Origin: a virus
DNA length: 37,513 nucleotides
Reading direction: 5' to 3' (one strand)
Virus record (IMG/VR): IMGVR_UViG_3300045988_075083
Location: 1-37,513 of that record
A program made the position numbers and the translations under genes. Below the pieces are notes generated by a model. The model saw only the letters and a list, made by a program, of their open reading frames with translations. It had not been told where the DNA came from and made no database searches. Positions 9,879-11,230 of the stretch are shown one piece after another (positions within the stretch are counted from its first letter, which is position 1; each line of letters opens with the position of its first letter).

Positions 9879-9899
9879 GTGCTCAAGTTGGGCACGGGC
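9879..9899. repeat. 21-nt motif GTGCTCAAGTTGGGCACGGGC (20/21 identical to 23687-23707); its first 17 nt form a hairpin
   Basis: Compared base by base; abuts and overlaps the stop codon of the HIRAN/TM2 gene (9899-9901). Confidence 0.8.
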
Positions 9900-11230
9900 T
9901 ATACATAGTACGGATTGGGCTTGGTCAGCAGGATGATGCAGTCGATCAGCCAGCCGAAGCCGACAAGTCCTAGCGTGAACAAGTAGAGAATCCCAGTGCC
10001 GATCTTGCCCTCGTAAAAGCGGTGGACACCAAAGAAGCCCAGAAACAGGCACAAGAAAAATGCCACCCACTTATTTTTCTCGCGGCCATGTGGCACGGCC
10101 ACGGCGTTGACGTTGTTGATGATTACATTGGGCTGCTGGACGGGCTGCTGATAGGTTTGCGGAGCTGTTGCGGGCCTCCCGCAATTTGTGCAGAATTTTG
10201 CACTTGCTGCAATTTTGCCTCCGCAATACCGGCAAAACCTGGTGGCGGGCGTTGGCGCGACGGGTGTCTCCGCAGAGGGTTTCGTCTCTACGGCGGGCTG
10301 CACCTCCACAGGAAGCTGCGTCTCTACGACAGGCTTTGGCTCGCCCGGAGCTGTGATTTCAAGCTTTGCGTAAAATTCTATCTCGCCACGTTTAATTTGA
10401 ATTTTCCCGTCCTCGTCCTCGTAGAGTTCCTTGTATGGGCCGCCGCCAATGTCTATCTTAACTCGGACATCGTCCTTTTTCAGAAGATTGCGGACGCGGC
10501 TGGTGCTGCTTTTCTTGACGTACCCGATATGGACGCCTCCAACCTCTACGCGGATCGCGTTCGGATCGTACTTGTTTTCTGGTTCATCGACAAGAGCCAC
10601 GTCATCCCTGTACTCTGAGAGATATTGCCATATCCGATCCCCGTCGTCGTAGTTTTCTCTCAGGTAAGACTTGCTCTCATAATAGTCACCATCTTCCTTA
10701 AGCATGTCCTCAATAGCGTCTGTGCGGAAGCTTGTCCCCGCGACCTTAAAGGTATACTTGACCCGCTCGACCGCTTTGGTCGGTTTTGGGGGAGCTTCAC
10801 TTAGATTTTCTACCCGGTTTGACAGCATTCCTTGCGCAGACTTTTTTATGAGATCGGACAGCCTAGCAGCGTCTTCTGCAGAGTTTATGGGGATTTTCCA
10901 GTGGCGCTGATTTTTGTTTTCTACTTGACCGAATCGTGGGTCGTCTCCAATGTCGCTTCCCCAGCAGTCTAGAGATATCCACTTAGATCTGACTCCGGCT
11001 TTTAGGCGGCAGAAGTCGTCCCCATAAGTTGGCCCAACAAACGACAGATACTTTTCCGTGCGTCGCTCAAGGTGAAACTTATCTGCTATGTCTCCAAGTG
11101 CGGAAAAGATTTCTTCGACTATCGGCTTTTCAATATCCGTCAAAACTACTTCTTCCTTGTGCTTATTAACATCTGATGTAACGAATGGCATTCCGTCAGC
11201 AGCTACACCAATCGTGATACGCATAAGCAT
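9899..11230 (-). CDS. Multidomain protein: unknown N-terminal domain, HIRAN domain, Pro-rich linker, zinc ribbon, TM2 membrane domain (443 aa)
   Basis: HIRAN: [8 protein letters not shown]...[26 protein letters not shown]. Zinc ribbon: [20 protein letters not shown]. TM2: [48 protein letters not shown]. The second ATG (11224) has better RBS spacing. The 5' two-thirds is low GC (11101-11160 = 23/60). Confidence 0.85.
   Translation of the reverse strand: [443 protein letters not shown]

Follow-up and report, generated by a model that had tools for sequence, protein, structure and literature searches.

Background

Lactococcal Sie2009 and S. thermophilus TP-J34 Ltp are reportedly superinfection-exclusion (Sie) proteins that are encoded between repressor and integrase. 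Such Sie proteins of Gram-positive temperate phages are small, lack a DNA-binding domain, and act as membrane proteins or lipoproteins at the outer face of the membrane or within it, and both lambda RexAB and the Kiwa-type defenses couple a membrane component to a DNA-directed component. A DNA-end-binding pocket is described for the HIRAN domain of HLTF, where D94 contacts the 3'-OH of the DNA, and Y72 and Y93 pinch the final two bases (PMC5773155). Prokaryotic HIRAN domains and bacterial TM2 domains have no assigned function. Here, we analyzed the IMG/VR virus record IMGVR_UViG_3300045988_075083 (positions 1 to 37,513, i.e., a stretch of 37,513 nucleotides, hereafter the window), with a focus on a single leftward gene at 9899..11224 (- strand). 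Its product of 441 amino acids (aa) consists of an N-terminal domain (N-domain), a HIRAN domain, a zinc ribbon (ZnR), and a TM2 domain, and the gene is plausibly a protection gene of the prophage lysogeny module, with an undescribed architecture and a new mechanism. Our preferred reading, to which we give somewhat less than an even chance, is that of a lysogen-expressed inner-membrane trap that would cap the 3' ends of entering DNA and act in superinfection exclusion or defense.

Comparison with described systems

The HIRAN domain of the window protein has the fold of the HLTF/Rad5-type domains, a Pfam score above the cut-off, and conserved equivalents of the HLTF residues D94, Y93, and N91. 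In contrast to these proteins, it is fused to neither a SNF2 motor nor a RING domain, carries an acidic insertion of ~40 aa, is net acidic, and is predicted to be tethered to the membrane. With the Gram-positive Sie proteins, the window protein shares the genomic slot and membrane association (predicted here), and its expression in the lysogen is presumed; however, there is no sequence similarity, and the window protein exposes a predicted DNA-end-binding head to the cytoplasm. No characterized Sie protein was present among its 23 PHROG matches, of which 22 are labelled "unknown function" and one (phrog_16989, E 0.007, weakest class) "moron... membrane protein", and an NCBIfam scan of the protein returned no match. 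RexAB and Kiwa have in common with it the membrane location and a logic of phage-DNA recognition, and rexAB likewise follows directly after the repressor, whereas the window protein is one polypeptide with an interchangeable membrane module and no homology to either system.

An earlier note on this DNA, made from its letters alone, had named no described defense system with such an architecture. This agrees with the PADLOC search, which gave only weak PDC-M03B matches to the HIRAN region. The candidate system PDC-M03 is composed of a HipA-like kinase and a HIRAN protein (PMC13245101). The HIRAN domain is what the window protein shares with it (PDC-M03B match at aa 170-259, E 6e-6), but the match stops short of the ZnR and TM2 parts, and the neighboring genes encode helix-turn-helix (HTH) proteins and an integrase instead of a HipA kinase. 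Membership in PDC-M03 was rejected, as the kinase neighbor is not present and the match is at the level of the domain only. A second candidate, PDC-S48 (DEDDh exonuclease and BRCT), is linked to the window through the N-domain, which is elsewhere fused to DEDDh and BRCT domains, and through PDC-S48-like proteins found in the same slot; the window protein differs in having neither an exonuclease nor a BRCT domain, and no PDC-S48 match.

The gene and its HIRAN domain

The 443-aa leftward open reading frame (ORF) that the earlier note had placed between the CI-like repressor and the genes of the integrase and of an HTH protein with a C-terminal transmembrane (TM) part (XRE-TM) is present at 9899..11230 (-), with a start that probably lies two codons later. 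We prefer the ATG at 11224 (441 aa) over the alternative ATG at 11230 (443 aa) because a ribosome-binding site GGGGGAGGG (11232..11240, -) lies at a spacing of ~7 nucleotides (nt) that suits it, and because all public gene calls of the identical protein (P0001) have 441 aa. Residues are numbered on the 441-aa protein, while Pfam match positions refer to the 443-aa ORF (add 2).

The HIRAN domain covers aa 153-295 (10340..10768, -) and was delimited with Pfam, AlphaFold2, Foldseek, and an alignment to HLTF; it includes a helical, acidic insertion of ~40 aa. Pfam family PF08797 matched at aa 206-258 with E 1.5e-9 and 38.0 bits (gathering cut-off 24.7), and because of the insertion only profile positions 21-74 of 96 were matched. 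An AlphaFold2 model built from 39 homologues reached a predicted local distance difference test (pLDDT) value > 90 over aa 150-295, and a Foldseek search with the modelled domain retrieved structures of the HIRAN domain of HLTF, both DNA-bound and free (4s0n, 4xzf, 4xzg), as well as the bacterial lp_0118 (3k2y), with a probability of 1.00 and E ~1e-3. A sequence search of the PDB with the whole protein gave marginal HLTF matches alone (E ~0.1). Thus, the HIRAN signature recognized in the earlier note scores above the curated cut-off, as does its TM2 signature, and the HIRAN fold was confirmed by AlphaFold2 and Foldseek.

The residues by which HLTF binds a 3'-OH have conserved counterparts in the window protein, in agreement with the end-binding activity that the earlier note had ascribed to this domain. 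In the HMMER alignment to the HLTF segment PNNPYDKNAI, the HLTF residues D94, Y93, and N91 are matched by D220, Y219, and N217, respectively. Across the 39 family members, N217 is invariant, position 220 is D in 38, and position 219 is Y or H in 36 (Y in 23, H in 13). The strand with the motif VAG[TV]S[FYH] contains position 166, where 31 of the 39 have F, Y, or H, and from motif similarity alone we infer that F166 is the equivalent of Y72. Judged by its residues, the 3'-OH pocket of the window HIRAN domain therefore looks intact.

Zinc ribbon, TM2 domain, and topology

The HIRAN domain is followed by a disordered linker rich in Pro, Glu, and Val (aa 296-327; 10244..10339, -), recognized from the sequence and from pLDDT values < 50, and by a Cys4 zinc ribbon (aa 330-351; 10172..10237, -). 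For the ribbon announced by the earlier note, the four Cys are present (CxxC...CxxC, as FCRYCG...FCTNCG) and PF13240 (Zn_Ribbon_1) is found among the precomputed Pfam annotations of many homologues, which have 0, 1, or 2 ribbon copies each, but the match in the window protein (aa 332-353 of the 443-aa ORF, E 5e-5) scores 23.4 bits, just under the cut-off of 25. A conserved linker joins the ribbon to the two TM helices of the TM2 domain (aa 382-430; 9935..10081, -), which was identified by Pfam and by hydropathy. TM2 (PF05154) matched at aa 384-432 over profile positions 2-51 of 51 (E 2.7e-19, 69.5 bits, cut-off 27.9), and the hydropathy peaks lie at aa 385-405 and 408-436. Since the window protein has no signal peptide but a Cys4 ribbon, and two TM helices precede the HIRAN domain in N-terminally anchored homologues, the HIRAN head is predicted to be cytoplasmic in every arrangement.

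The membrane part varies strongly between homologues. TM2 is swapped for unrelated C-terminal helices in P0017, P0020, and P0038, and for two N-terminal helices with a Pro-rich linker in P0067, P0076, P0082, and P0087. From the species genomes of GTDB, the 29 closest HIRAN ORFs were also collected and their loci read with iterative hidden Markov models (HMMs); a crude hydropathy scan predicted TM segments in 23 of the 29 and a soluble protein in the other 6. Moreover, the ZnR-linker-TM2 tail is found, with 49% identity, under a head of the Mrr restriction-nuclease type in P0057; ZorD, LmuA, and PDC-S02 have Mrr-type nuclease domains to which this head matches. Among the relatives retrieved with a word-indexed search (119, all metagenomic and nearly all without a name), TM2 is also fused to TIR and to RNase_T plus HIRAN. 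Judged from these architectures, the ZnR-linker-TM2 tail is a shuffled cassette. As the membrane module is interchangeable or absent in homologues and the same tail bears an Mrr head, TM2 looks like an anchor and not an effector; what stays constant among the architectures would therefore be the membrane tethering of a head, either HIRAN or nuclease, and not TM2 itself.

This bears directly on an abortive-infection reading that builds on the central idea of the earlier note, a sensor of DNA ends that acts through the membrane: the HIRAN domain, with the N-domain, would sense phage DNA ends or replication intermediates, upon which TM2 would oligomerize, depolarize the membrane, and kill the infected cell, with a RexAB-like logic in a single polypeptide. 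The place right after the repressor is indeed that of lambda rexAB, the protein combines a membrane part with a nucleic-acid-sensing head, TM2 is also fused to TIR and Mrr, domains typical of defense effectors, and in divergent relatives the TM2 part is 67% identical as compared to 38% for the head. The higher identity is, however, partly due to recombination, with a breakpoint that leaves the TM2 tail and XRE-TM together in one conserved block, TM2 is freely replaced by unrelated anchors of one or two helices at either terminus, and it is absent in the 6 soluble homologues of the same slot. To our knowledge, no pore activity has been ascribed to bacterial TM2 domains, and the literature searched contained neither a function for a bacterial TM2 domain nor a description of a membrane-anchored HIRAN protein. 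Altogether, we regard an abortive infection of this kind as unlikely, and the role of TM2 as a membrane effector was not borne out; the alternative offered in the same note, that the protein blocks DNA entry, fits the evidence better.

Homologues in the repressor-integrase slot

All 12 loci of the phage family have the same gene order: a divergent Cro-like gene, the CI-like gene, the HIRAN gene, XRE-TM, and the integrase, with DnaB, ParA/ParB-like, lysin, and holin genes around them. In the window, these neighbors are a Cro-like HTH protein of 67 aa (12069..12272, +), a CI-like HTH protein of 114 aa (11380..11724, -), which lies immediately upstream of the HIRAN gene in the same orientation and has no peptidase domain, the XRE-TM protein of 182 aa (9130..9678, -), and a tyrosine integrase of 342 aa (8087..9115, -). 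The window is a temperate phage of gut Clostridia, Oscillospiraceae-like.

Among the relatives from the word-indexed search, the HIRAN-ZnR-TM2 core recurs in proteins of 275-307 aa that lack any N-terminal extension (40-68% identity) and in proteins of 390 aa in which DUF4236 precedes it; combination with the N-domain is rare (P0001, P0002, P0038). The homologues for whose contexts the earlier note had suggested a survey mostly sit in the prophage repressor-integrase slot: of the 29 GTDB loci, 21 have a co-oriented HTH gene ≤ 700 base pairs (bp) upstream and 19 an integrase downstream (14 tyrosine, 5 serine), which is ≤ 900 bp away in 17 of these; several of the remaining loci are truncated at a contig end. 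They belong to Oscillospiraceae (best match, 63%), Lachnospiraceae, Acetatifactor, Faecalibacterium, Faecousia, Finegoldia, Soehngenia, Streptococcus, and others. In the unrelated phages of P0043 and P0067, an HTH repressor gene directly precedes the HIRAN gene and a serine integrase gene comes after it, and the pneumococcal prophage IPP12 (IPP12_00002) and S. oralis Javan349 (Javan349_0048) encode a membrane-anchored HIRAN protein between repressor and integrase. For the Mrr-ZnR-TM2 protein P0057, the preceding genes encode an HTH protein and an M78 (ImmA-like) peptidase. As judged from their sequences, membrane-tethered HIRAN proteins are widespread in Firmicutes prophages. Two candidate partnerships were considered and rejected: XRE-TM is not an obligatory partner, being missing in other phage families, and functional coupling to the integrase was discarded given that both tyrosine and serine types occur.

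The gene context also bears on a role in lysogeny control, in which the protein would sense DNA damage (3' ends or single-stranded DNA (ssDNA)) and promote induction or excision, perhaps together with XRE-TM, from the position that ImmA anti-repressor proteases hold in other Firmicutes elements. The 114-aa CI-like protein has no peptidase domain of its own, the lysogeny module showed no ImmA-like gene, and the HIRAN gene is kept in most family members. A HIRAN gene of a S. Typhi prophage was scored as required in a transposon screen, as repressors were (PMC3632133), and the HIRAN partners of HipA kinases are predicted antitoxins (PMC11706625). On the other hand, a self-cleaving HTH_3+Peptidase_S24 repressor, which would need no additional sensor, ends 6-84 bp before the HIRAN gene at 6 of the GTDB loci. 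The varying integrase type and the absence of XRE-TM from other phage families leave the protein without a fixed partner, close relatives without the HIRAN gene carry unrelated cargo in the slot (see below), and a membrane anchor is hard to square with the sensing of chromosomal damage. We thus consider this role quite unlikely.

The streptococcal prophages raise another possible substrate, DNA imported during transformation. Transforming ssDNA enters Gram-positive cells with its 3' end first, so that a HIRAN domain at the inner face of the membrane could trap this end and protect the prophage from recombinational deletion. HIRAN binds 3' ends (PMC5773155), and prophages of S. pneumoniae, S. 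oralis, and S. infantis, which are naturally competent, encode membrane-anchored homologues. However, most hosts of the family (Oscillospiraceae, Lachnospiraceae) are not known as competent, which makes a dedicated block of ssDNA import very unlikely.

Two further observations concern the flank of the slot. The highly conserved XRE-TM protein (9130-9678, -) is a putative membrane-tethered transcription factor, which would be unusual in a lysogeny module, and lies between the cargo slot and the integrase. In locus L001 (contig k141_256492), a transposase fragment, a MatE transporter gene, and conjugation genes (TraG/VirD4-like, Toprim/DUF3991) follow downstream of the integrase, so that the integration site of this prophage may lie inside an integrative conjugative element or beside one.

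Cassette exchange and alternative cargo

XRE-TM is 91-100% identical across loci L001-L012. In the divergent relatives among these (L005-L007, L011/L012), Cro is 92-97% and a 148-aa HTH protein 93-99% identical to that of the window; the values are 38-51% for HIRAN and 67% for the ZnR-TM2 tail, and the CI-like protein is 28% identical or undetectable. BLASTN comparisons with L005/L006 gave similarity over XRE-TM and the TM2 tail up to 10156, none over the ZnR, HIRAN, and N-domain parts, similarity again at 11257-11397 (96%), a second loss over the body of the CI-like gene, and a return from 11779 onwards. Against L008/L009, similarity extended through HIRAN to 10789 and was lost over the N-domain and the CI-like gene. 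The breakpoints coincide with module borders. The 96% identical segment at 11257-11397 comprises the promoter-bearing intergenic region and the 3' end of the CI-like gene, and it is retained in relatives whose flanking coding modules differ.

Nine further relatives (L105-L113) were retrieved via the conserved XRE-TM protein, which is 76-98% identical in them. L111 retains the allele of the window (96%), and L106 combines a CI-like protein 100% identical to that of the window with a HIRAN domain of 40% identity. Others hold different cargo in the slot: a DUF4236-TM protein (L105), an HTH protein and DUF2513 (L110), a small zinc-ribbon protein (L108, L109), or a TerB-like+BRCT protein of 310-318 aa followed by a small second gene (L112, 2833-3789; L113, 2881-3813, where the second gene encodes a double zinc ribbon). 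The TerB-BRCT protein matches the C-terminal part of the PADLOC candidate PDC-S48 (E 4e-9), and an N-domain-DEDDh-BRCT protein of L099 also matches PDC-S48 (E 5e-30). By these sequence comparisons, the HIRAN gene is a swappable mosaic cassette between near-identical flanks. Together with a promoter-like site of its own and a low guanine plus cytosine (GC) content, this supports the lysogeny-side accessory slot proposed in the earlier note.

An exchangeable, low-GC cassette is not what would be expected if the protein served to tether the phage's own genome to the membrane for replication or segregation, as does phi29 p16.7, a membrane protein that binds DNA to organize replication. The membrane-anchored DNA-binding head would suit such a task, and the phage also encodes ParA/ParB-like proteins and DnaB, but the gene belongs to the leftward lysogeny operon, outside the replication genes, and it is dispensable in close relatives. 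Own-genome tethering is, in our view, highly improbable.

Two further features of the exchange were observed. DUF4236 (PF14020) is an alternative N-terminal module on HIRAN-ZnR-TM2 in P0003-P0013, and in L105 (3416-4279) it stands on a different membrane protein with a Cys-rich C-terminal motif (KYHKKTCRMIKGDC...ACGVCGG), so DUF4236 seems to be another shuffled head of the cargo set of this slot. Furthermore, exchange of the CI-like gene does not extend to the Cro-like gene, Cro being 92-100% identical in most relatives (L005-L012, L105-L113). Repressor and Cro normally co-vary with operator specificity. As the CI-like gene swaps while Cro stays, a different HTH protein may belong to the true immunity pair, either the one of 148 aa (12522-12974) or XRE-TM.

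Proposed mechanism

In the mechanism that we tentatively favor, the protein would be made in the lysogen and located at the inner face of the membrane, where the HIRAN pocket would capture the free 3'-OH of linear DNA emerging into the cytoplasm, for instance that of a superinfecting phage. Ligation, extension, and recombination of the captured end would thereby be prevented, with the genome of the invader retained at the membrane. Anchoring by TM2 would confine this activity to entering DNA, sparing the replication and packaging intermediates of the prophage, and the variable N-terminal module (absent, DUF4236, or N-domain) would tune recognition. Capping by HIRAN is favored over signaling to a membrane effector because soluble HIRAN-only proteins occur in the same slot and the membrane module is replaceable, because a nuclease head is found on the same ZnR-TM2 chassis, and because confinement to the membrane could solve the problem of self-targeting. 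An accessory, defense-like role is plausible from the anatomy of the protein and its context. In favor of it, the divergence of the HIRAN domain (38-51% identity) between flanks of 91-100% identity resembles evolution under conflict, and alternative cargo of the slot matches the PADLOC candidate PDC-S48.

Several points weigh against this reading. The HIRAN domain has a net charge of -8, and its acidic insertion of ~40 aa is not present in HLTF; DNA-binding domains are rarely so acidic, and the ligand could be a different one or the domain autoinhibited. An aromatic residue at position 219 is found in some family members and not in all, and prokaryotic HIRAN domains have been termed uncharacterized (PMC11090510). 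Expression in the lysogen is suggested just by a consensus promoter match and by co-orientation with the repressor. The presence of the HIRAN gene in most members of the phage family fits a role in the lysogeny biology of the phage itself as well. Lastly, the argument that the slot is a defense hotspot amounts to guilt by association, because the PDC entries of PADLOC are candidates only.

A broader claim, possible if rather doubtful, is that membrane-tethered HIRAN proteins represent a new and widespread class of single-gene prophage immunity in Firmicutes that would capture the 3'-OH of entering phage DNA or of 3'-first transforming ssDNA, with the slot as a hotspot for DNA-end modules (HIRAN, N-domain, DEDDh-BRCT, and Mrr on ZnR-TM2). 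Across many Firmicutes prophages, the HIRAN head is predicted to lie at the cytoplasmic face of the membrane, with its gene in the position classically associated with "lysogen protection". As homologues occur in prophages of tractable streptococci, the hypothesis that entering DNA ends are captured lends itself to a direct test. If true, it would be a mechanistically new form of superinfection exclusion and the first function of a bacterial HIRAN domain; the N-domain would become a new DNA-associated domain, and the repressor-integrase slot of gut Clostridia phages a place to mine for defense genes.

N-terminal domain

The N-domain occupies aa 1-140 (10805..11224, -). The earlier note had recognized nothing in the N-terminal ~150 aa, and likewise no match was found in Pfam, PHROG, or NCBIfam. 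A HMMER search with aa 1-163 against 1.84 billion cluster representatives gave 142 clusters, 74 of them at E < 1e-10. Most of these relatives are standalone proteins of 130-145 aa, and others are fusion proteins in which a DEDDh (RNase_T) 3'-5' exonuclease, mostly accompanied by BRCT, is joined to one or the other end of the N-domain. With the conserved motifs HLERRSDxYLS, DFCRxK, RSxWxSLD, and NKNQRHWKI, the alignments indicate that the N-domain is a real, unnamed domain family.

The domain was modelled with low confidence in the first full-length model and with a pLDDT of 88.8 when a deeper alignment was used. Foldseek matched it to an alpha/beta fold of the YjbR/DUF1801/MotA-C-terminal type: YjbR 2fki, DUF419 2a1v, and DUF1801/YdhG 2oc6 were retrieved with probabilities of 0.94-0.99, E 0.03-0.08, and TM-scores of 0.44-0.58, and the other closest folds, with E up to 0.4, were DUF1801/YdhG 9t2w and the DNA-binding C-terminal domain of T4 MotA (probability 0.5-0.7). 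Viral models in BFVD that match the N-domain include DUF5655 and MotA, and a PDB search with the N-domain profile gave nothing meaningful. With modest confidence, the domain is probably YjbR/MotA-C-terminal-like and nucleic-acid-binding.

Viral contigs were scanned for the N-domain with a closer subset of its alignment. In L102, the order is HTH, standalone N-domain, and serine integrase; in L099, it is HTH, ImmA-like M78 peptidase, N-domain-DEDDh-BRCT protein, ZnR-TM protein, and tyrosine integrase. Thus, the N-domain family also occupies the repressor-integrase slot.

Expression signals and base composition

The gap of 155 nt upstream of the HIRAN gene contains a strong sigma-70-like promoter candidate, TTGACA-18-CATAAT (11284..11313, -), recognized as a consensus match. 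Further promoter-like sites from the consensus scan lie near the Cro-like gene at 11785-11814 (+) and 12011-12039 (-); the scan found 3 sites, as compared to 2.2 expected in shuffled sequences. The GC content is 46% in the N-domain, 50% in HIRAN, and 52% in the CI-like gene, versus 61% in the whole window and 60-67% in the XRE-TM, integrase, and Cro genes. The count of 23/60 G+C at 11101-11160 given in the earlier note is exact. About 35 nt past the stop of the HIRAN gene, a GC-rich hairpin without a T tract (GGCCCCGCCG...CGGCGGGGCC, 9832-9863, -) was seen by reading the sequence; the terminator scan did not call it. Lying between the cargo gene and XRE-TM, this hairpin may serve as a weak terminator or stabilize the RNA.

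Other features of the window

Positions 1-99 and 37415-37513 are identical, which suggests that the contig is circular or terminally redundant and that the assembler left an overlap; the window would thus probably represent a whole phage genome of ~37.4 kb rather than a fragment. Right after a tail-fibre-like ORF, a 216-aa ORF at 2395-3045 (+) has a low GC content (~50%) and may be an exchanged receptor-binding or tail-tip module. At 21040-21770, ~330 nt of low GC without a convincing ORF precede an ORF of 132 aa (21371-21769, +) whose product shows an H...N...H pattern like that of HNH proteins, and this region may be a cos/pac region with an HNH endonuclease beside the terminase.

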